Part shown: in pieces, positions 1 through 18,187 of the stretch
Layout: each line of letters opens with the position of its first letter
How positions within the stretch are numbered: position 1 is the first letter of the stretch
Source: Escherichia phage Pollock
Reading direction: 5' to 3' (one strand)
Sequence record: NC_027381.1
DNA: 64,000 nt
Program-made: the position numbers and the translations under genes
Notes under the pieces: model-generated
What the model was told of the DNA's origin: nothing
The model's input: only the letters and a program-made list of their open reading frames with translations
Database searches by the model: none

Positions 1-60
1 AATGCACACAATCATTCTGTAAGCAAAGTACTCCCCCCCCCCCATACTTCACACATTGAT

Positions 61-85
61 GAGTCTTCGACTCTAGTGGAGCAAT
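61..85 (+). promoter_or_regulatory. Hairpin promoter-like motif copy 1 (candidate virion-RNAP early promoter)
   Basis: Inverted repeat gagtc-TTC-gactc (5-bp stem, 3-nt loop) followed by tagtggagcaat; same architecture recurs at 1501, 1551 and 3828; lies about 45 nt upstream of ORF 119..454. N4 vRNAP promoters are small DNA hairpins with 3-nt loops. Confidence 0.5.
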
Positions 86-118
86 GGTGCTCTACTTAAT
101 CATGATTAGGAGTATGTT

Positions 119-454
119 ATGAAACCTGTTAACTCTATCGGTATCTTTGGTGCTGTATCTTCCTCTACTGTATCTGCATTGAATGCAATTGAACGTGGTG
201 CAGTAGCTGTAGCTAATACTGCTAACATGGCAGTAGCTCTTACTGAATGGGGTAATGAGGAGATTGAGAACCTTCGTCATCATCGTGCTATGAAGCGTGA
301 AGTAGAAGGTGAAATCTTCCGAACCAAGTATGTAATGGAAGCAGCTAAAGAAGTAGCTGAAGTACATGCAGAAGCCAATAAAGCTATGGAGAGTGCATCT
401 CCCGAAGTTAAAGCAGTATTTGATGCATTAGTAGCTAAGCATCTCAACAAGTAA
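119..454 (+). CDS. Early hypothetical protein, Ala-rich, 111 aa
   Basis: ORF directly downstream of hairpin motif copy 1; followed by hairpin plus T-run terminator at 463..487; no recognisable domain. Confidence 0.5.
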   Translation: MKPVNSIGIFGAVSSSTVSALNAIERGAVAVANTANMAVALTEWGNEEIENLRHHRAMKREVEGEIFRTKYVMEAAKEVAEVHAEANKAMESASPEVKAVFDALVAKHLNK

Positions 455-462
455 TTACTAAG

Positions 463-487
463 CCTACTCTTCGGAGTAGGTTTAAAA
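463..487 (+). terminator. Rho-independent terminator
   Basis: cctactc-ttcg-gagtagg stem-loop followed by TTT, immediately after the stop of ORF 119..454. Confidence 0.6.
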
Positions 488-696
488 ATTCTAATTCACA
501 CATTACACATCAGATAGATAGTATGTACATAAACACATGTGTATCCATACATATCGCTATAACGCTCTAGGAAGCTCTACAATGAGATTAAGGGTAGAGG
601 TAATAGGGTAACTCATGTTGATTTAATTCAATTGATTCTAGCTATGCTAGAAGACTTATACATTACTTACTTCTTAAGCTTCTCACTTCGTGAGTA

Positions 697-1035
697 ATGG
701 GTAGAAGTAAAAGGAGTATTTCAATGGCTATCATCAAATCAATCATAGGTTCTAATACAGAACCAGAAACACTTGTAGTAAACAAATACAAAGAGCCATA
801 CGATGTATACATCGGTAGAGGTTCAATATGGGGGAATCCCTTTACAATTCAAGAATATGGTAGAGGCAGATGTATAGCCATGTATGAGCAATACATACGT
901 CAAAGACTACATCAAGAACCAGACCTATACCTTCAATTACTTGAGCTTAAAGGTAAGCGATTAGGATGCTTCTGCAAACCTAAAGCATGTCATGGAGACA
1001 TACTTATTAAGCTTATCCAAGAGTACTCAAACTAA
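697..1035 (+). CDS. DUF4326-like protein
   Basis: Motifs YDVYIGRGSIWGNPF and C-terminal GCFCKPKACHGD resemble the DUF4326 family signature. Confidence 0.5.
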   Translation: MGRSKRSISMAIIKSIIGSNTEPETLVVNKYKEPYDVYIGRGSIWGNPFTIQEYGRGRCIAMYEQYIRQRLHQEPDLYLQLLELKGKRLGCFCKPKACHGDILIKLIQEYSN

Positions 1036-1500
1036 TATCCTAATTTTCCTTATTTTCAATAAATATACTATAGAACACCTAAAGACTATCTAGATATTTA
1101 AAAGGGTTATTTATGGTTACTCAAATCACAGTAGCTGAATGCGTTCGATTGGAATGGGAAAGTCATTATTACTTACCATTTATTGAACGTTACAAACTAA
1201 TCTCATTAATCAAAAGAATACTGGAGAACTAAATGGAATGGTGGAAAGCAGAACTAATCCAGTCAGTAATTGGAGCAATTATTGGTTTAGTTGTTGTCTA
1301 TGCAATGGTTAAGTTTGGAGGAGATGAAGATGCGTAAATCATTAATCATGGGTACTAAAGCTGATGTTATTAAGATGAAAGCTAAACGTCAGATGTATAA
1401 AACAGTGACTTTTGCAGAACGTTATAGTACATCTGAACCAGTGAATCGTATTGTTACTTTCAATCATCCAATCCTTAAAACTATGTAACCCTTTTCATCA

Positions 1501-1525
1501 CCGTCTTCGACGGTGGTGGAGTAAT
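1501..1525 (+). promoter_or_regulatory. Hairpin promoter-like motif copy 2
   Basis: ccgtc-TTC-gacgg followed by tggtggagtaat. Confidence 0.5.
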
Positions 1526-1550
1526 CCTCAAGATTCTCCTTCGTTTGTAA

Positions 1551-1577
1551 GAGCGACTTCGTCGCTGGTGGAATAAT
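1551..1577 (+). promoter_or_regulatory. Hairpin promoter-like motif copy 3
   Basis: agcgac-TTC-gtcgct followed by ggtggaataat; about 40 nt upstream of ORF 1607..2020. Confidence 0.5.
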
Positions 1578-1606
1578 CCAATTAATTAACTATCGAGGTA
1601 TATATC

Positions 1607-2020
1607 ATGGCTATTCTGAATGGAAATAACGCTTCTTCTATCATCGGTGCTGCTCTGAATGGTAAAGCTACAAACAATACTCAACGTCCTCAAGCTGAAA
1701 TCTTTCTGAATGTAGGTATTACTGTTCAGTTACCTAACGAAGAAGGAGAAATGGTTGATACTTTCCTGTCTCTGCCATTTGGTTTACCACTGGATACTAT
1801 GAATGAATTAGTAATTCGCGGTAGTAACGCTCAATGGAATGGGCAAGCTGCTGCTCGTAATGAGTTACTGAAGGCTTTGATGAAAATGGGTGAATCTCTG
1901 GAAGCTGGTAGTGGTACAGAGTTACCTAAACTTCAGGTTCAATTATATCGTCGTAAAGCACAGGAAGAACATATTGCAAGCAACAATGCAATGTCTCAAA
2001 TCCTTGCTGCATTAAGCTAA
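1607..2020 (+). CDS. Early hypothetical protein, 137 aa
   Basis: ORF downstream of tandem hairpin motifs; codon choice (CTG, CGT, GGT) differs from neighbouring AT-rich ORFs, suggesting high expression; terminator follows. Confidence 0.5.
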   Translation: MAILNGNNASSIIGAALNGKATNNTQRPQAEIFLNVGITVQLPNEEGEMVDTFLSLPFGLPLDTMNELVIRGSNAQWNGQAAARNELLKALMKMGESLEAGSGTELPKLQVQLYRRKAQEEHIASNNAMSQILAALS

Positions 2021-2028
2021 TACTAATC

Positions 2029-2053
2029 GGGGAGCCTTCGGGTTCCCCTTTTA
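2029..2053 (+). terminator. Rho-independent terminator
   Basis: ggggagcc-ttcg-ggttcccc stem-loop followed by TTTT. Confidence 0.7.
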
Positions 2054-2055
2054 AA

Positions 2056-2250
2056 TTGGAGGTAGGTATGAAGATATTAGCAGTGTTTCTATTGTTCTTA
2101 TTACTGCTTAGTAATGTATTACTGGAAGTACTTGATAAGGATACAGTGCAATATCAACAACAAATGGAATGCATTAAGAAGAAAATATCTCATGGCATTC
2201 CACGTAGTTCAATCCAGTTAACAGACAGTTCTTGTAAGGTGATTAAATGA
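2056..2250 (+). CDS. Small membrane or secreted protein, 64 aa
   Basis: N-terminal hydrophobic stretch ILAVFLLFLLLLSNVLL. Confidence 0.35.
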   Translation: MEVGMKILAVFLLFLLLLSNVLLEVLDKDTVQYQQQMECIKKKISHGIPRSSIQLTDSSCKVIK

Positions 2251-2426
2251 GTATCTTTATTGTAGTTTTATTTTTCTTTCTTCTTCTCCCTTCTTTTAGA
2301 AGATTAGTATTTAAAGCACTTCGTGCTCTTCTCAGAGTATTTGGATTTGTTTTATTTATTCCAGTAATTATATGTACTGTTATTTATGCATCAATAAAAG
2401 AAGCAAATCATAAAAGAAGATATTAA
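2247..2426 (+). CDS. Small hydrophobic protein, 59 aa (hand-called, below ORF-track cutoff)
   Basis: ATG overlapping the upstream stop (ATGA); product largely hydrophobic (IFIVVLFFFLLLP, FGFVLFIPVIICTVIY). Confidence 0.3.
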   Translation: MSIFIVVLFFFLLLPSFRRLVFKALRALLRVFGFVLFIPVIICTVIYASIKEANHKRRY

Positions 2427-2476
2427 ATAACAGCTCCCAATTAAGGGAGCTTATTAAACTATTAAAGAGATAGTCG

Positions 2477-2722
2477 ATGAATAAAGAATTAATATTTATT
2501 CTTAGTTGCATACGTGAATCAATGTGTGATTACACAGAAGATGAATATGAAAATGATACATCTCAATATACGAAAACAGATGACTTATGTCTTGAAGTAA
2601 TGCTCCATAAATGTTCTTCCTTTCCTAAAGAAGAAAAAAATTGTAATGCTTGCCTATTAACTTATAAAAATAATATTGGGTATTCATCTCAAATAACAAT
2701 AGTTATTCAAAAATTAATCTAA
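2477..2722 (+). CDS. Small Cys-rich protein, paralog family member (MNKELIxIL N-terminus)
   Basis: N-terminus MNKELIFILSCI shared with ORFs at 3044, 3214, 3387, 3599, 4381, 5732 and 5923; several Cys in C-x(n)-C ... C-x2-C spacing. Confidence 0.45.
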   Translation: MNKELIFILSCIRESMCDYTEDEYENDTSQYTKTDDLCLEVMLHKCSSFPKEEKNCNACLLTYKNNIGYSSQITIVIQKLI

Positions 2723-2795
2723 AGATTATCAATATTGGTAGTCCAATATTAATGTCTCTTTAGATAGTTACTCGTTAATCCAAAAGGATATCAAT

Positions 2796-3035
2796 ATGTC
2801 AAAGAAACCTAAATCACTTAAACTGCAAGAAGTTAAATTAGGAGATGTTCCTGATTATTTAGTTACTTATAGTCGTGTAGACCGTATCTGGGGAGTACAT
2901 ATTAATGGTACTTCTGTATATATTCTTAAACGATTAGTAGGTAAAAAGTACATGTATTATGTAGGTAGTCGTTATTTTAAGACACTACGTAATGCAATAT
3001 TTAGTGTTGTATTAGGAAATTCACTTCCTTTCTAG
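2796..3035 (+). CDS. Hypothetical protein, 79 aa
   Basis: ORF with AAGGA upstream; no recognisable domain. Confidence 0.35.
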   Translation: MSKKPKSLKLQEVKLGDVPDYLVTYSRVDRIWGVHINGTSVYILKRLVGKKYMYYVGSRYFKTLRNAIFSVVLGNSLPF

Positions 3036-3043
3036 GAGAAGTA

Positions 3044-3217
3044 TTGAACCAAGAATTAATACTTATTCTCTCATCTATAAGTAAATCAAAACTTTGGTGT
3101 AATTGTTATCCTATAGCATGTACTGGAGTACATTGTTTTCATTGCGTTTTGTATGAGGATATCCAACCTAGTATGTATATTGCTAAAATTTTAAAAATAG
3201 GTGAGAGAATACTATGA
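3044..3217 (+). CDS. Small Cys-rich protein, paralog family member (TTG start, hand-called)
   Basis: Translation LNQELILILSSISKSKLWCNCYPIACTGVHCFHCVLYED; AGGAG about 7 nt upstream of the TTG; stop overlaps the next paralog start. Confidence 0.4.
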   Translation: MNQELILILSSISKSKLWCNCYPIACTGVHCFHCVLYEDIQPSMYIAKILKIGERIL

Positions 3218-3390
3218 ATAAAGAATTGATAGCTATTCTTAATTATATAGAATCATGTCCAAATTTGTGTATTCACCTAACTCCACATATTGCTTGTAAT
3301 AATATTTCATGTACTTGTTGTCCTATGTTTAGAGTAATTAGAAGAACTTACTTTAAAGACATAGCAAAAGTAGTAGAAAGAATAGTATGA
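3214..3390 (+). CDS. Small Cys-rich protein, paralog family member (hand-called, 58 aa)
   Basis: Translation MNKELIAILNYIESCPNLCIHLTPHIACNNISCTCCPMF...; ATGA overlaps with both neighbours. Confidence 0.45.
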   Translation: MNKELIAILNYIESCPNLCIHLTPHIACNNISCTCCPMFRVIRRTYFKDIAKVVERIV

Positions 3391-3602
3391 ATCAGGAATT
3401 AATACTTATTCTTAAATCTCTGTGTAATATAGAAGATTACTCAATAAGAGGAATTCTATGTACAGTCATAATAGCAAAACCAAATGAAATAGGATGTGAA
3501 CACATATCATGTAGTAATTGTTATTTTGTTAGAACAGGGCCTGTAAAACACGAATATAAATTAAAAATTAGAGAAACAATTGAGAACTTTAAAACAATAT
3601 GA
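3387..3602 (+). CDS. Small Cys-rich protein, paralog family member
   Basis: MNQELILILKSL N-terminus; CEHISCSNCYF Cys cluster; 4-nt overlap with the next paralog. Confidence 0.5.
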   Translation: MNQELILILKSLCNIEDYSIRGILCTVIIAKPNEIGCEHISCSNCYFVRTGPVKHEYKLKIRETIENFKTI

Positions 3603-3805
3603 ATAAGGAATTATTATTAATAATTCAATCACTAGTTAATTTAATTTATCTTTATCATAAGAATATGCTTTGTAAAGAAATAAGAGGAAAAGCTCCGAAA
3701 TTACACTGTATCGGTGTAGAGTGCGCTAATTGCTATTATTCTTTGTCTTCTCCTGTAGAAAAAAGATATGGCTTAAAGATAGAAACCACCATTAAACAAT
3801 TCTAA
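3599..3805 (+). CDS. Small Cys-rich protein, paralog family member
   Basis: MNKELLLIIQSL N-terminus; CIGVECANCYY Cys cluster. Confidence 0.5.
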   Translation: MNKELLLIIQSLVNLIYLYHKNMLCKEIRGKAPKLHCIGVECANCYYSLSSPVEKRYGLKIETTIKQF

Positions 3806-3827
3806 TTCTCTTTGTCGCTTCGCTCCT

Positions 3828-3852
3828 CTGCCTTCGGCAGTTCTGGGGTAAT
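3828..3852 (+). promoter_or_regulatory. Hairpin promoter-like motif copy 4
   Basis: ctgcc-TTC-ggcag followed by ttctggggtaat; about 30 nt upstream of macro-domain ORF 3870. Confidence 0.45.
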
Positions 3853-3869
3853 TTCATTTAGAGGTACTT

Positions 3870-4373
3870 ATGTTAGAAGCTCGCGGTAATATGCTTGAGA
3901 TGGATTGTGATGCTCTATGCATTACTACTAATGGATTTGTTAAAAGCAATGGTGCATCAGTTATGGGTGCAGGTATTGCTAAACAAGTTCGAATAGCTAT
4001 TCCGGGAATTGATAAGATTTTAGGACAGAAAATTGCTCGTGAAGGCAATAACGTTCATCCAATCATTAACCATAATAATATCTGGATAGTATCCTTTCCT
4101 GTTAAACCAATAACTGAAATCAGTAATGGGAGTAACTTCGTAAAACATAAATATTTCCCTGAAGGGACAACAGTTCCGGGATGGGCATGTAAAGCGAATA
4201 TCAACTTGATAGTACGTTCCTGTCATCAGTTAGTAAAACTAGCTAATCAGTATGGTTGGCAGAAAGTATTACTACCTAGACCGGGATGTGGTGCTGGAGA
4301 ACTTAACTGGAATTATGTGAAAAAGGTTATCGAACCTTTATTAGATGACAGATTTATTGTCTGTACTTATTAA
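3870..4373 (+). CDS. Macro-domain-like protein (putative ADP-ribose binding or hydrolysing)
   Basis: N-terminal DALCITTNGFVKSNGASVMGAGIAKQ resembles the macro-domain DA-x-V-N-A-A-N ... G-G-G-V motif region; C-terminal LLPRPGCGAGEL resembles the second glycine-rich loop. Confidence 0.5.
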   Translation: MLEARGNMLEMDCDALCITTNGFVKSNGASVMGAGIAKQVRIAIPGIDKILGQKIAREGNNVHPIINHNNIWIVSFPVKPITEISNGSNFVKHKYFPEGTTVPGWACKANINLIVRSCHQLVKLANQYGWQKVLLPRPGCGAGELNWNYVKKVIEPLLDDRFIVCTY

Positions 4374-4380
4374 AATATTT

Positions 4381-4587
4381 ATGAAAGATGAATTAATCAT
4401 CATTTTAAATGAAATATGGTCATTACCAGAATACCAAAATATACGTGGTCCTAAGGAAGAATTATGTAGAAGAATAACATGTACCGGAGTTCACTGTACA
4501 AATTGTCCTCTTGGTTATTTCTTAAAAGACGAAGATTACGTCTCTCAAATCCATAAAATATTGGAAGTCATTAATCATGAAATATGA
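4381..4587 (+). CDS. Small Cys-rich protein, paralog family member
   Basis: MKDELIIILNEI N-terminus; CTGVHCTNCPLGYF Cys cluster (same CTGVHC as ORF 3044). ORF track begins at 4345; ATG 4381 after the macro-domain stop is the likelier start. Confidence 0.5.
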   Translation: MKDELIIILNEIWSLPEYQNIRGPKEELCRRITCTGVHCTNCPLGYFLKDEDYVSQIHKILEVINHEI

Positions 4588-5500
4588 AACTCAACTCCTG
4601 ATTGAATCTATGTTCAACCGTCATCAAGAACGTGAACTCATTAGAAATGAATTAAGAAGTTCACCTGAAATTATGGAGTTAGTTAATGCTGCTGTTAGTA
4701 AAGCATTGGAATGGGTTAAAGGAGATTACTTTGAAAGTAAGAATAAACGTTTAGCTTTATTAGATACCAATATTTTAGAAGATTTTTATATTGATGTTGC
4801 TGGTTCATTGGCTCAGTTTGGTAAAGCTAAGTATACCCAAGTAGTAGGTATGGTGTCTGGGATGATAACTACTATGTCTCAGAAAGAGGCTATACGTACT
4901 GCTGGCGAGTTAATTTCATTAGCAGCTATGGTAGACCTAGTTGATGTGATTCCTGCGTCTATGAGCATTACAGGCTCTATGGAATTGGTTTCTCGTATTC
5001 AACTTGAACCAAAAACATTAGAACTGATTGACCAGTATCAGTATCTTCCTCCAATGATTGTTCCACCTGAACCAGTTAAATCAAATACTGGTAGTGGATA
5101 CCTGTCTATTAAATGGGATTCGTTAATTCTTAAAAAGAATCATCATGAACATGATATCTGTTTAGATAATATCAATAGATTCAATTCTGTAGCATTTTGT
5201 CTGAATGAACGAGTTATCCGTAATATTCGAGATAATCGTAAACATCTGGATAGTGCTAAAGCAGATGAGACTGCTGATGAGTTTAAAGCACGAGTAGAGT
5301 CATTCCTAAAAATGGAAAAAGAATCTATGAAAGTATTTGCAATGCTCATCAATGAAGGAAATAGATTTTATCTAACTCATAAATATGACAAACGAGGACG
5401 TACTTACTGTCAAGGTTACCATGTCTCCTACCAAGGTAATACGTATCGTAAAGCTATTCTTGAATTAGCTGATAAAGAAATAGTACCTATTGAGGAATAA
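4577..5500 (+). CDS. Phage RNA polymerase II subunit 1 (N-terminal portion of a T7-like RNAP; N4 RNAP II small-subunit analog)
   Basis: C-terminal DKRGRTYCQGYHVSYQGNTYRKAILELADKE aligns with T7 RNAP DWRGRVYAVSMFNPQGNDMTKGLLTLAKGK; upstream of the catalytic subunit ORF as in N4-like phages. Confidence 0.7.
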   Translation: MKYETQLLIESMFNRHQERELIRNELRSSPEIMELVNAAVSKALEWVKGDYFESKNKRLALLDTNILEDFYIDVAGSLAQFGKAKYTQVVGMVSGMITTMSQKEAIRTAGELISLAAMVDLVDVIPASMSITGSMELVSRIQLEPKTLELIDQYQYLPPMIVPPEPVKSNTGSGYLSIKWDSLILKKNHHEHDICLDNINRFNSVAFCLNERVIRNIRDNRKHLDSAKADETADEFKARVESFLKMEKESMKVFAMLINEGNRFYLTHKYDKRGRTYCQGYHVSYQGNTYRKAILELADKEIVPIEE

Positions 5501-5502
5501 TT

Positions 5503-5739
5503 ATGGCTGAATTATCTAAACCAGAACAACTCATTAAGATTACGTTATTACTCCGTAATATTCCAAATGAGTTAGATACGCATTTTTGTAGTACTCATCC
5601 TGCATGTGAAAAATTATGTGGACCTAAACATGATAAAAGTAAATGTGCTTTATTTACATGCTCTGAAGAAGAGATTAAGAAAACTATCTTTGGATTAGAT
5701 GCAGCAGGGAGAATGTTAGGAATTATCCCTGATGAATAA
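5503..5739 (+). CDS. Small Cys-rich protein, 78 aa (divergent)
   Basis: Multiple Cys (CSTHPAC, CGPKHDKSKC, FTC); lies between the two RNAP subunit genes. Confidence 0.4.
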   Translation: MAELSKPEQLIKITLLLRNIPNELDTHFCSTHPACEKLCGPKHDKSKCALFTCSEEEIKKTIFGLDAAGRMLGIIPDE

Positions 5740-5926
5740 AGAATTAGTTTTAATCCTTAAAGAAATAAAAAGAGTATCTGAAACTTCTAAACATGGATGT
5801 ACTGGTAGTAAATTTAAAGAATTATTTCGTTGTTTAAATGTATCTTGTGGAGTATGTATATTAAATAATATACAAAATCCAAAAAAGTATAATTATCAAA
5901 TATTCTCTATTCCAATAAATCTATGA
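5732..5926 (+). CDS. Small Cys-rich protein, paralog family member
   Basis: MNKELVLILKEI N-terminus; CLNVSCGVC cluster. Confidence 0.5.
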   Translation: MNKELVLILKEIKRVSETSKHGCTGSKFKELFRCLNVSCGVCILNNIQNPKKYNYQIFSIPINL

Positions 5927-6135
5927 ATAAACAATTTATTCTTATATTGGATTCAATTAGGGATTGGGCAAAATCAGAATTTTCTTGTAAGGGTGGACTG
6001 TTAACTATACGCGATACATATATAAATGAACATTTATGTGGGTATTTATGTACCTCATGCCCTATTGTTCAAGTAAGAAGTAAACAACTTTATCCCGACC
6101 AAATCATTCAAACTTCCTCTCAACTAATTAAGTGA
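5923..6135 (+). CDS. Small Cys-rich protein, paralog family member
   Basis: MNKQFILILDSI N-terminus; CGYLCTSCP cluster; 4-nt overlap with the RNAP catalytic subunit start. Confidence 0.5.
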   Translation: MNKQFILILDSIRDWAKSEFSCKGGLLTIRDTYINEHLCGYLCTSCPIVQVRSKQLYPDQIIQTSSQLIK

Positions 6136-7370
6136 GACTCAATATGCAACAGTTTACAGCTTTCCAATATATCAAATTAGATATTGCTAACTCTTTTGGT
6201 TTAGATAAAGAACTGTTTGATGACCGTATCAAATGGTTTGAAGAAAACAAAAATAATTTAGCTAATTTGGTAAATGATGCAGATGAACCTGCTCAATTCT
6301 ACGCAGGTATGTTGGCATACCAAGATGTACTGGAAGGTAAACCAATTGGTTATTTAGTAGGTATGGATGCTACTGCATCTGGATTGCAGTGTATGGCTGC
6401 ATTAACTGGCTGTAAGACTACCGCTGAAACAGTAAATCTTATTGACCCTAATTGTCGTAAAGATGCTTATACCGATGGCTATAAAGTCATGGGAGAACTA
6501 CTTAATGGCAAGATTGATAAGATTGACCGTAAGGATTTGAAGGGAGCTATTATGACTCACTTCTATGGTTCTCAAGCAAATCCTAGAAGTGTATTTGGTG
6601 AAAATACTATAGAACTACAAAAGTTCTATGAAACTGTTCAAACCATTGCTCCCGGTGCAAATATGCTACGAGATGATTTAATCAATCTCTGGCAACCAAA
6701 AGCACTTCAACATTTATGGGAATTACCAGATGGCTTTACTGCTGTCGTTAAAGTAATGACCATGAAAGAAGAAAGCTTTGAAGTAAATGAATTAAATAGT
6801 TCCTTTACTCATCGTTATTGGGTTAATGAGGGTCAGGATTTTGGTTTATCACTTGCTGCTAATGTTGTTCACTCTGTAGATGGGATGGTAGTACGTGAGA
6901 TGAATCGTCGTGCTAACTACGATGAAACCAAAATACAGCGTGTATATGAGCTTCTGACTGGTTCAAACAATACAGGTATTGTGGACTATACAGTAGATGA
7001 TAAACAGCTTAAGAGAGCTATTGAGCTTGCTGAAAGACATCGTTTTGTTTCTACTGTGATGATTGAGTTCATTAACCATGAGAATGTACATATGATTCCT
7101 TTATGGATTAAGAACCAACTCATCGAAATTATTGAGAAGATGTTGGCTCATAAACCATATGCATTAATTGCAATTCATGATTGCTTTAAATGCCATCCTC
7201 TGTATATGAATAACGTGCGTCAGAACTACATTGATATCTTTGCTCAGATTGCAGATAGCACAATGCTTCAAGCAATTGCATCTCAAATCTCTGGTAAACG
7301 TATTCCAGTAACTAAACTGTCTAATGACCTTTCAACATACATTCGTAAATCCAACTACATGCTTAGTTAA
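6132..7370 (+). CDS. Phage RNA polymerase II catalytic subunit (T7-like single-subunit RNAP palm and fingers)
   Basis: Motif A-like GMDATASGLQC (T7 DGSCSGIQH), motif B-like RKDLKGAIMTHFYGS (T7 KRSVMTLAYGS), NVVHSVDGMVVRE (T7 NFVHSQDGSHLRK), motif C-like IAIHDCF (T7 LIHDSF). Confidence 0.85.
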   Translation: MRLNMQQFTAFQYIKLDIANSFGLDKELFDDRIKWFEENKNNLANLVNDADEPAQFYAGMLAYQDVLEGKPIGYLVGMDATASGLQCMAALTGCKTTAETVNLIDPNCRKDAYTDGYKVMGELLNGKIDKIDRKDLKGAIMTHFYGSQANPRSVFGENTIELQKFYETVQTIAPGANMLRDDLINLWQPKALQHLWELPDGFTAVVKVMTMKEESFEVNELNSSFTHRYWVNEGQDFGLSLAANVVHSVDGMVVREMNRRANYDETKIQRVYELLTGSNNTGIVDYTVDDKQLKRAIELAERHRFVSTVMIEFINHENVHMIPLWIKNQLIEIIEKMLAHKPYALIAIHDCFKCHPLYMNNVRQNYIDIFAQIADSTMLQAIASQISGKRIPVTKLSNDLSTYIRKSNYMLS

Positions 7371-7379
7371 GGAACTTCT

Positions 7380-7760
7380 ATGTCCATTTTCACTAATGTA
7401 ACTATTACCATTGACCCATTAGGTCATTACGTATCTATACCTCGTGACCGTATCCGTGATTCTTTAGGATACATTCCTCAAATTGTGGAACGTGGAGTAC
7501 GTCAAGCCAAAGATGAAAAAGATGCTGGTTTCTGGATTTGGACAATTTATCAGTATGGTAATCCTCTAAATCCACCTGAAACCAAATTGAAATTTAAAGA
7601 TGGTATTCTGACCTATCCAAAAGAAGAACCAAAATATCCAATAGCTGTTTATCACCTTAATAATGTTGCCGGATTAGATATCCGGTTTTGGCAATATGAA
7701 CATGCTATGACTGTATATACAGTTAATGGTAAAGCAATTTTATTCGGGAGAATGGATTAA
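7380..7760 (+). CDS. Hypothetical protein, 126 aa
   Basis: ORF only; no recognisable motif. Confidence 0.45.
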   Translation: MSIFTNVTITIDPLGHYVSIPRDRIRDSLGYIPQIVERGVRQAKDEKDAGFWIWTIYQYGNPLNPPETKLKFKDGILTYPKEEPKYPIAVYHLNNVAGLDIRFWQYEHAMTVYTVNGKAILFGRMD

Positions 7761-8101
7761 TGATTAAAGTAGGTAATATGGTCAGAATGGTCTTTACTAA
7801 AGACCCAGAACAACATACATCCAATGTAATAATCAAAGGGTTATACATGGATAAAGCATGGGTAATGTATGAACAGTCAGGTAAAGATGAAATTATTGAT
7901 TTAGCTGACGTAAGCTTTGGCAACCCTATTCCAGAAGAACCTGCAAATCATTCTTTTGTAGCCAGAGACTATAGTGGTAATTGGCTATATTGGGACCATA
8001 AAAAAGGTTACTGGTATGAATGCAATGACCCAACACAACACGAAGAACAAGAAGTCTCTTTACCGATTAATCAAAGCAAGCCAACTCAACCCATTTACTA
8101 A
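7760..8101 (+). CDS. Hypothetical protein, 113 aa
   Basis: ORF with ATGA overlap to the upstream gene. Confidence 0.45.
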   Translation: MIKVGNMVRMVFTKDPEQHTSNVIIKGLYMDKAWVMYEQSGKDEIIDLADVSFGNPIPEEPANHSFVARDYSGNWLYWDHKKGYWYECNDPTQHEEQEVSLPINQSKPTQPIY

Positions 8102-9208: not shown

Positions 9209-9234
9209 GCGCCTACGGCGCTCTCTTTGGTTAT
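9209..9234 (+). promoter_or_regulatory. Second-class hairpin motif (TAC loop plus TCTCTTTGG)
   Basis: gcgcc-TAC-ggcgc followed by tctctttggttat; similar elements at 10011 and 18161; function unknown. Confidence 0.3.
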
Positions 9235-9263
9235 AGCTACCTTCGGGTAGCTTTTTATTTTTT
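9235..9263 (+). terminator. Rho-independent terminator
   Basis: agctacc-ttcg-ggtagct stem-loop followed by TTTTTATTTTTT. Confidence 0.75.
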
Positions 9264-10010: not shown

Positions 10011-10030
10011 CGCACTTCGTGCGTCTCTTA
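10011..10030 (+). promoter_or_regulatory. Second-class hairpin motif (TTC loop plus TCTCTT)
   Basis: cgcac-TTC-gtgcg followed by tctcttagg, then a terminator-like hairpin. Confidence 0.3.
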
Positions 10031-15871: not shown

Positions 15872-15888
15872 AAGCCCCTTCGGGGCTT
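15872..15888 (+). terminator. Hairpin, possible terminator or RNA processing site
   Basis: aagcccc-ttcg-gggctt perfect stem-loop but no clear T-run. Confidence 0.35.
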
Positions 15889-18160: not shown

Positions 18161-18187
18161 CTGCCTACGGCAGTTTCTTTGGTTAAT
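18161..18187 (+). promoter_or_regulatory. Second-class hairpin motif (TAC loop plus TTTCTTTGG)
   Basis: ctgcc-TAC-ggcag followed by tttctttggttaat, upstream of ORF 18203. Confidence 0.3.

Follow-up and report, generated by a model that had tools for sequence, protein, structure and literature searches.

At its left end, the genome of Escherichia phage Pollock (NC_027381.1) carries five small DNA hairpins, each followed at a fixed distance by GG, that are with high probability early promoters of the phage N4 type, read by the phage's own virion RNA polymerase (vRNAP). Coordinates refer to the window, the 64,000-nt stretch of that record that was analyzed, and all +1 positions are predicted from sequence. 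The observations that carry this reading are the motif itself, its statistical and positional specificity, the geometry that it shares with N4 promoters P1–P3, its synteny and covariation in related phages, and the presence of a vRNAP gene in the same genome. Very probably the five hairpins are an expected feature of an N4-like phage and no new kind of element. At the level of sequence there is one real variation from N4: promoter base −8G has been lost, and the recognition loops of the vRNAP have diverged.

The hairpins are set in an N4-like genome, of the Schitoviridae and Humphriesvirinae-like. With the left 4.4 kb as query, matches of ~77–83% identity over 31–65% of its length were obtained to Salmonella phages FSL SP-058/SP-076, As2 and UTK0002, to Shigella phage B2, and to Klebsiella phages Pylas, MY01 and KpCHEMY26. 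All of these are Schitoviridae (N4-like), mostly of subfamily Humphriesvirinae, and in an alignment with Pylas the left terminus predicted by PhageTerm falls at window position 1. The window also encodes a vRNAP (Table 1) with an intact catalytic core, ~26% identical to that of N4 in the central/catalytic domain. Residues K437, R440, E557, D559, Y678 and D951 (mini-vRNAP numbering, its offset checked against the N4 sequence) are conserved in all ten vRNAPs aligned with MAFFT. A homologous-protein search with vRNAP residues 1031–1500 gave no scored match, and tblastn against a phage collection together with the 10-sequence MAFFT alignment was used instead. Together, the N4-like relatives, the vRNAP gene and the Pylas terminus alignment mean that this is a genome of the N4 type and that the sites lie at its physical left end.

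Four perfect 5-bp stems with a TTC loop and a C:G closing pair were found by direct reading and by a scan for perfect stems with 3-nt loops, at 61–73, 1501–1513, 1553–1565 and 3828–3840. They are the four hairpins of an earlier note on this DNA, made from the letters alone, whose stems are present as it described them. Its positions 61, 1501 and 3828 hold, and its position 1551 is one base off, the 6-bp stem there spanning 1552–1566. Its count of four falls short: the same scan returned a fifth promoter-type hairpin at 682–694, CTCAC-ttc-GTGAG-taat-GGGTAG, which had been overlooked because its downstream bases depart from what was taken for a conserved box. All five sites, here lettered A to E from left to right, have the form N4-C-TTC-G-N4 (N4 meaning any four bases) as a perfect stem, then T-N-N-T, then G-G. 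Perfect stem lengths are, in order, 5, 5, 7, 6 and 5 bp, counting 1499–1515 for site C. After the stem, the sites at 61, 1501, 1553 and 3828 each continue T-N-S-T-G-G-R-R-Y-A-A-T.

This combination of features is highly specific. The pattern CTTCGNNNNTNNTGGRRYAAT has 4 exact matches in the window and, with ≤2 mismatches allowed, 5 matches against 0.68 expected, a number reached in 0/100 shuffles. A refined motif, consisting of a perfect 5-bp stem, the CTTCG core, a TNNT spacer and GG, also has 5 matches; 300 first-order Markov simulations of the window produced none. Searched for across the whole window, as the earlier note had proposed, it proves not to be scattered: every match lies on the + strand and within 61–3852. 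A relaxed scan (4/5 pairs, TTC or TCC loop, spacer of 3–5 nt) found no site beyond the five, with 0.4 expected. At all sites the minimum free energy fold of the template strand is the expected hairpin, with z from −2.4 to −4.1; standard DNA folding parameters possibly underestimate the stability of the GAA cap.

The promoters P1–P3 of N4 provide the closest comparison (Haynes and Rothman-Denes 1985; Glucksmann 1992; Davydova 2007; Gleghorn 2008; reviewed in PMC4496689). The identical scan applied to N4 bases 1–35000 returned exactly three + strand sites, at 90 (GTTGC-ttc-GCAAC-ttat-GG), 559 (GAAGC-tcc-GCTTC-tttt-GG) and 4548 (GCTGC-tcc-GCAGC-tttt-GG), which agree with the published description of P1–P3 and lie 5′ of gp1, gp2 and gp15/16 (RNAPII). 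In N4, vRNAP recognizes template −11A/G, −10G, −8G and +1C; extrusion and stability need a G:C closing pair plus the loop 3′ A (−12A) and 5′ G (−10G); a purine at −1 stacks on the initiating nucleotide; and the early promoters occupy the leftmost, first-injected DNA, facing the early genes (PMC4496689). In the same numbering, the template strand of the window sites reads −13G, −12A, −11A, −10G and −9C; it has A at both −4 and −1, and C at both +1 and +2. Thus the published N4 determinants are present at all five window sites, −8G excepted.

The likeness extends to spacing, position and gene order. GG stands exactly 4 nt past the stem at 5/5 window sites and at P1–P3. P1 in particular has the same TTC loop, closing pair and stem length as the window sites, and like them a 4-nt spacer that carries T at −4 and −1 and is followed by G at +1 and +2. 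As in N4, the sites lie at the left, first-injected end, on the + strand and directed toward early genes, and each is a 5- to 7-bp inverted repeat with a 3-nt loop centered at −11. The template loop is 3′-A-A/G-G-5′ on a G:C closing pair (identical to P1). At the sequence level there is template C at +1, eight nucleotides past −8, a GG for the RNA start 11 nt from the loop center, and a 4-nt unpaired spacer. The N4 order of P1 with gp1, P2 with gp2 and P3 with RNAPII is paralleled by an open reading frame (ORF) in the gp1 position, a gp2 homologue and RNAPII genes. Seen in this frame, the "distinct downstream box" of the earlier note, tGGTGGAgTAAT, dissolves into the spacer (−4 to −1) and the first transcribed bases (+1 to +8); T−4, T−1, G+1 and G+2 also occur in P1–P3, and the box is therefore no separate element.

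A difference from N4 is that the window has five sites, including a tandem pair, versus three. The earlier note had counted a copy number above three as a departure from the model. Hairpin early promoters have been predicted in the Pseudomonas N4-like phages LUZ7, LIT1 and PEV2 (PMC3715699), and in LUZ7 the starts were mapped by ONT-cappable-seq (PMC9163698). With nine early starts mapped, a tandem pair among them, LUZ7 shows that more than three such promoters are not unusual. Two of the strongest LUZ7 starts lie 33 nt apart before Drc, a single-stranded DNA-binding cofactor of RNAPII (PMC9163698). This arrangement is paralleled by sites C and D, whose predicted starts (G1518 and G1570) are 52 nt apart and both 5′ of the gp2 homologue. 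The window sites further resemble those of LUZ7, LIT1 and PEV2 in a stem of at least 4 bp, a conserved 3-nt loop, a G start and a number of early promoters above three. They differ in that the LUZ7 start is 13–14 nt from the hairpin center, whereas in the window, as in N4, GG is at 11 nt; host and subfamily differ as well. Hairpin early promoters have also been predicted in Pectobacterium CB1-like phages, and such predictions are routine in N4-like phages.

Every orthologous site that falls within the DNA covered from seven relatives (Pylas, MY01, SP-058, SP-076, UTK0002, Shigella B2 and TR2) is present, at a syntenic position; the SP-076 locus ends before site E. Site A is identical in 7/7 relatives, and site D is invariant in 7/7, including GGAATAATCCAA. 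The stems of sites B, C and E differ among relatives with pairing retained, that is, by compensatory changes. At site B, CTCAC/GTGAG in the window and the Ithacavirus phages is GTACC/GGTAC in Pylas and MY01 and CCCTC/GAGGG in TR2. At site C, CCGTC/GACGG becomes CTGGC/GCCAG in TR2. At site E, CTGCC/GGCAG in the window is CAGCC/GGCTG in the relatives, a compensatory T:A to A:T swap. In a combined alignment of 18 sequences (window, relative and N4 sites), two-sided changes occur in 4/5 pairs, the closing C:G never varies, and sliding the 3′ partner by 1–3 columns drops pairing to 23–50%. In register, 90/90 cells pair, a figure that is partly achieved by construction because the sites were gathered by a perfect-stem scan, and that to this extent counts against us. 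Independent of that selection is the fact that no orthologous site has been lost in the relatives. Invariant columns of the alignment are the cap bases C, T, C and G, T−4, G+1 and G+2, and T−1 is kept at ≥90%. Positions +3 to +8, RRYAAT, are window-biased and loosely kept; the relatives' orthologous sites read GGAGTTCT, GGTGAATT, GGATGAAT and so on. The earlier proposal of candidate vRNAP promoters is thus borne out as far as sequence can carry it, by the vRNAP gene, the rightward orientation in the leftmost 3.9 kb, the P1 geometry, the synteny in seven relatives and the stem covariation.

Table 1. Candidate promoters, genes and other hairpins of the window discussed in the text
Feature	Coordinates	Strand	Details
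Candidate early promoter A	61..85	+	Hairpin 61–73 GAGTC-ttc-GACTC; spacer 74–77 tagt; predicted +1 G78
Candidate early promoter B	682..706	+	Hairpin 682–694 CTCAC-ttc-GTGAG; spacer taat; predicted +1 G699
Candidate early promoter C	1499..1525	+	Hairpin 1501–1513 CCGTC-ttc-GACGG; spacer tggt; predicted +1 G1518
Candidate early promoter D	1552..1577	+	Hairpin 1553–1565 GCGAC-ttc-GTCGC; spacer tggt; predicted +1 G1570
Candidate early promoter E	3828..3852	+	Hairpin 3828–3840 CTGCC-ttc-GGCAG; spacer ttct; predicted +1 G3845
First early ORF, 111 aa	119..454	+	N4 gp1 position
DUF4326 gene, 5′-flanked by site B	724..1035	+	Pfam PF14216, E 1.1e-25; BLASTP N4 gp12, E 1e-15
N4 gp2 homologue (single-stranded DNA-binding cofactor of RNAPII)	1607..2020	+	BLASTP N4 gp2, E 4e-19
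Block 3′ of site E	3870..7370	+	Macro-like ORF 3870–4373; RNAPII subunit genes 4577–5500 and 6132–7370
vRNAP gene, 3537 aa	31855..42468	−	phmmer vs full-length N4 vRNAP (gp50) structures, E 1.8e-183
Terminator-like hairpin after first ORF	463–480	+	7-bp stem, TTCG tetraloop; direct reading; whole feature 463..485
Intrinsic-terminator-like hairpin after gp2 homologue	2029–2048	+	8 pairs, TTCG loop, T-run; whole feature 2029..2053
Class II T-N-C hairpins	9209–9221, 10011–10023, 15874–15886, 18161–18173	+	0–4 nt after middle-gene stop codons

Beyond the partly built-in pairing, several observations weigh against an N4-type vRNAP promoter. One is the identity of template base −8: from site A to site E it reads T, A, T, A, C, whereas N4 vRNAP needs G there, for its R904 contact, and among the relatives −8G occurs in site C of TR2 only. 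The absence of −8G at all five sites means that the conserved core shrinks from the N4 heptamer GC-TYC-GC to the pentamer C-TTC-G. A second is the enzyme itself, since the −11 recognition element and the specificity loop of the clade's vRNAP cannot be aligned with those of N4. The −11 element (K114, R119, W129) and specificity loop (D901, R904) are conserved only in N4, G7C and KP8 and partly in Axy22. In the clade of the window, the −11 element segment is replaced by the aromatic-rich PEGQRIFWETYPVEYF, and the specificity-loop region is longer and basic. A residue-by-residue mapping of the N4 promoter contacts onto the window vRNAP was tried and given up: HMMER, pairwise MAFFT and the multiple alignment disagree in the contact segments, and we therefore claim no residue equivalences. 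Since the recognition segments cannot be aligned, promoter recognition cannot be identical to that of N4. The divergent specificity loop and the loss of −8G would fit together, each being consistent with the other. A third is that C:G-closed T-N-C hairpins also occur outside the early region, though without TNNT-GG. The last is an annotation: the Pylas record (MH899585, 2545–2577) labels the orthologue of site C a "terminator."

That label belongs to a different explanation, in which the hairpins would work at the level of RNA: as small terminators or attenuators, or in the processing or stability of transcripts begun further upstream. Site C as RNA can indeed extend to a 10-pair stem with G:U pairs, sites C and E lie 13 and 23 nt past stop codons, and related T-N-C hairpins directly follow the stop codons of middle genes. 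We nonetheless consider an RNA role improbable. None of the five hairpins is followed by a T-run, the tails being TAGTGGAG, TAATGGGT, TGGTGGAG, TGGTGGAA and TTCTGGGG, and for this reason the Pylas label is probably a mis-call by an automated terminator finder. The terminator-like hairpins of the same region are different, with 7- to 8-bp stems, TTCG tetraloops and, at 2029, a T-run. Upstream of site A, only ~60 nt remain before the physical genome end, and they hold no promoter that could transcribe into it. The invariant bases are exactly those that N4 requires at the level of DNA, and a role in RNA leaves the fixed GG at +11 from the loop center unexplained.

Other searches bear on conventional signals. 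Intrinsic (Rho-independent) terminators were considered as a candidate identity and rejected: a terminator scan never reports the promoter hairpins, and its lone match in the area is an offset stem at 3832–3848 that overlaps site E. Promoters of the sigma-70 type (−35/−10 hexamers, 16- to 18-nt spacing) were likewise rejected, none of the listed sigma-70-like sites overlapping any of the five. Within 1–8000 such matches are under-represented, at 21 versus 39.7 ± 6.3 in shuffles, and Rfam at E ≤ 1 on the same interval matched no family. Predicted 5′ untranslated regions are not significantly stable overall (z ~−1.3; site D +0.3). The short leader of site B is an exception, at z −4.6 with only −2.4 kcal/mol. 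At sites A, C and D the RNA could begin with small 5′-terminal stems (GGAGCA/UGCUCU, GGA/UCC), which we record and do not claim. The window's terminator-like hairpins (463–480, 2029–2048 and 9240–9257) carry C(UUCG)G tetraloops on 7- to 8-bp stems, and loop length alone separates them from the TTC triloops of the promoter type, with their 5- to 7-bp stems.

The T-N-C hairpins outside the early region deserve a closer description. A count of T-N-C hairpins with a C:G closing pair and a perfect 5-bp stem gives 13 for the + strand, the five promoter candidates included, and 0 for the − strand, with ~0.4 expected per strand. Four of them, a clade-specific set which we call class II, directly follow middle genes (Table 1), and a further possible member lies at 2315–2327. 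In class II hairpins the central loop base varies freely among A, T and C, the tail is pyrimidine-rich, and an invariant GG occurs at stem+8/+9, 14 nt from the loop center. Both SP-058 and Pylas carry them at syntenic positions, with pairing kept through one compensatory change of a stem (GCCCC to GCGCC), and none was found in N4 bases 1–35000. Strong UUCG-type terminators follow 2/4 of them. These hairpins may be weak terminators, 3′-end hairpins, or hairpin-type middle promoters for RNAPII like those of LUZ7.

The LUZ7 middle promoters, which are GC-rich hairpins with 3- to 4-nt loops and G starts (PMC9163698), also raise the question of whether sites A–E themselves serve the heterodimeric RNAPII together with the gp2 homologue. 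This seems very improbable to us. The sites have the geometry of N4 vRNAP promoters, with +1 at 11 nt from the loop center and a purine at the center of the template loop, and not the ~15-nt spacing of LUZ7 middle promoters, and they are confined to the first-injected 3.9 kb. Moreover, they would drive the genes of RNAPII and of its cofactor homologue, which are needed before any RNAPII exists.

A bolder extension of the vRNAP reading joins the two classes. In it, the clade's vRNAP would have ceased to read −8G and would read only the C-GAA-G cap and positions −4, −1, +1 and +2, through recognition modules unrelated in sequence to those of N4; the hairpin cap would have spread into the region of the middle genes, and the class II hairpins there would be RNAPII middle promoters. 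We regard this conjunction as possible and rather doubtful. If it were true, the clade's vRNAP would be a natural specificity variant of a structurally characterized polymerase–promoter pair, and hairpin-type middle promoters, so far reported only for Pseudomonas phage LUZ7, would occur in an enterobacterial N4-like phage.

By analogy with N4, from which the mechanism is taken, negative supercoiling would extrude the inverted repeats as cruciforms. The template arm would then present a 5- to 7-bp stem with a 5′-GAA-3′ loop on C:G, the core of a mini-hairpin, d(C-GAA-G), that has a sheared G:A pair and is unusually stable, while host single-stranded DNA-binding protein would melt the non-template arm. 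Injected vRNAP would bind the template hairpin through loop bases −12A, −11A and −10G. RNA synthesis would begin with G-G, exactly 11 nt past the loop center, behind a single-stranded "ruler" of 4 nt whose template bases at −4 and −1 are A. It is from sequence analysis that we infer the transcript start at GG, the extrusion of the hairpin and vRNAP as the enzyme. Thereby the ORF in the gp1 position would be driven by site A, the DUF4326 gene cluster by B, the gp2 homologue by the tandem of C and D, and the RNAPII operon by E; the genes so driven would be those needed to set up middle transcription.

The mini-hairpin itself has a literature of its own, on d(GCGAAGC)/d(GCGNAGC) DNA (Hirao and colleagues; review PMC13037366). 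The window template C-GAA-G equals its loop and closing pair, including the bases of the sheared G:A. The difference lies in the second stem pair, which is G:C in the canonical heptamer and never so at sites A–E, and the extreme stability of GCGAAGC can therefore not simply be assumed for them. Mini-hairpins of the d(GCGAAGC) type also occur at phage replication origins (PMC13037366), and site A adjoins a conserved poly-C tract at the genome end. Both facts would suit sites that are DNA-structure signals for replication priming, packaging or genome-end recognition, their resemblance to N4 promoters being incidental. We give this explanation only the slightest chance: all five sites precede early-gene start codons and are co-oriented with them, at 25–41 nt (94 nt for the upstream tandem copy), GG start and spacer match the mapped initiation sites of N4, and the parallel with P1, P2 and P3 holds gene by gene.

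Read as early promoters for vRNAP, the sites would be useful in several ways. The window vRNAP is only ~26% identical to that of N4 in the catalytic domain, yet loop, closing pair, spacing and GG have been kept and −8G has been lost; this suggests which promoter features are imposed by the physics of DNA, through extrusion and stability of the hairpin, and which by protein contacts. The clade is thus a useful comparison for the N4 vRNAP–promoter crystal structures, even though the discovery is incremental. The sites also yield a testable early transcription map of five promoters, their predicted +1 positions and the units that the 463 and 2029 hairpins would end, for the N4-like phages of Salmonella, Klebsiella and Shigella, a poorly annotated group with some members under consideration for biocontrol. 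The papers on the clade that were consulted (SP-058/076, TR2, Schitoviridae taxonomy) mention no promoters or hairpins; a prior description elsewhere is possible.

The relation of each site to its gene can be given more precisely. The earlier note had placed each hairpin 30–50 nt upstream of an early ORF. This is so for 3/4 of its sites, with 46, 41 and 30 nt from hairpin end to ATG; the 1501 site, as the upstream one of the two tandem hairpins, is 94 nt from ATG 1607. Site A, ~60 nt from the left genome end and 5′ of ORF 119–454, has the predicted initially transcribed sequence GGAGCAAT. That ORF shows no similarity to N4 gp1 by BLASTP or Pfam and is therefore the gp1 equivalent by position only. 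Site B precedes the DUF4326 gene, whose ATG 724 follows the ribosome-binding site AAAGGAG. The longest DUF4326 ORF begins at ATG 697, as annotated in SP-058/SP-076, and that ATG overlaps the predicted start G699. ATG 724, annotated in Pylas and UTK0002, is the probable start, and ATG 697 a probable misannotation. The predicted +1 of site D, the downstream tandem member, is 37 nt before ATG 1607 of the gp2 homologue, which the SP-058 record describes as "gp2; similar to N4." The predicted +1 of site E is 25 nt before ATG 3870, at the head of the block with the RNAPII subunit genes. Of these, 4577–5500 matches N4 gp15 (BLASTP E 5e-50) and 6132–7370 matches Pfam RNA_pol (E 1e-19). The Pylas orthologue of 3870–4373 is annotated as an ADP-ribose binding protein.

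Some smaller features of the region may be recorded here. The heptamer GCTTCGC occurs at 3817–3823, 5 nt 5′ of the site-E hairpin, with no GG start at the N4 distance; on the template strand it reads GCGAAGC, which is both the canonical mini-hairpin and the N4 promoter heptamer. The 12-mer around it, cgcttcgctcct, is invariant in every site-E orthologue recovered (six relatives and the window). Further left, ORF 2796–3035 matches Pfam N4_GP8 (bacteriophage N4 DNA replication inhibitor; E 1.5e-25), and small, paralogous-looking ORFs with similar N-termini (MNKELI..., MNQELI..., MNKELL...) follow it at 3044–3805. The poly-C tract (11–13 C) occupies 33–45, ~15 nt 5′ of promoter A, and may be a genome-end or packaging feature. 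C9–C12 is kept in 7/7 relatives, the left end of N4 carries a C9 tract at 34–42, and CACACA words flank the tract of the window at 5–10 and 51–56.

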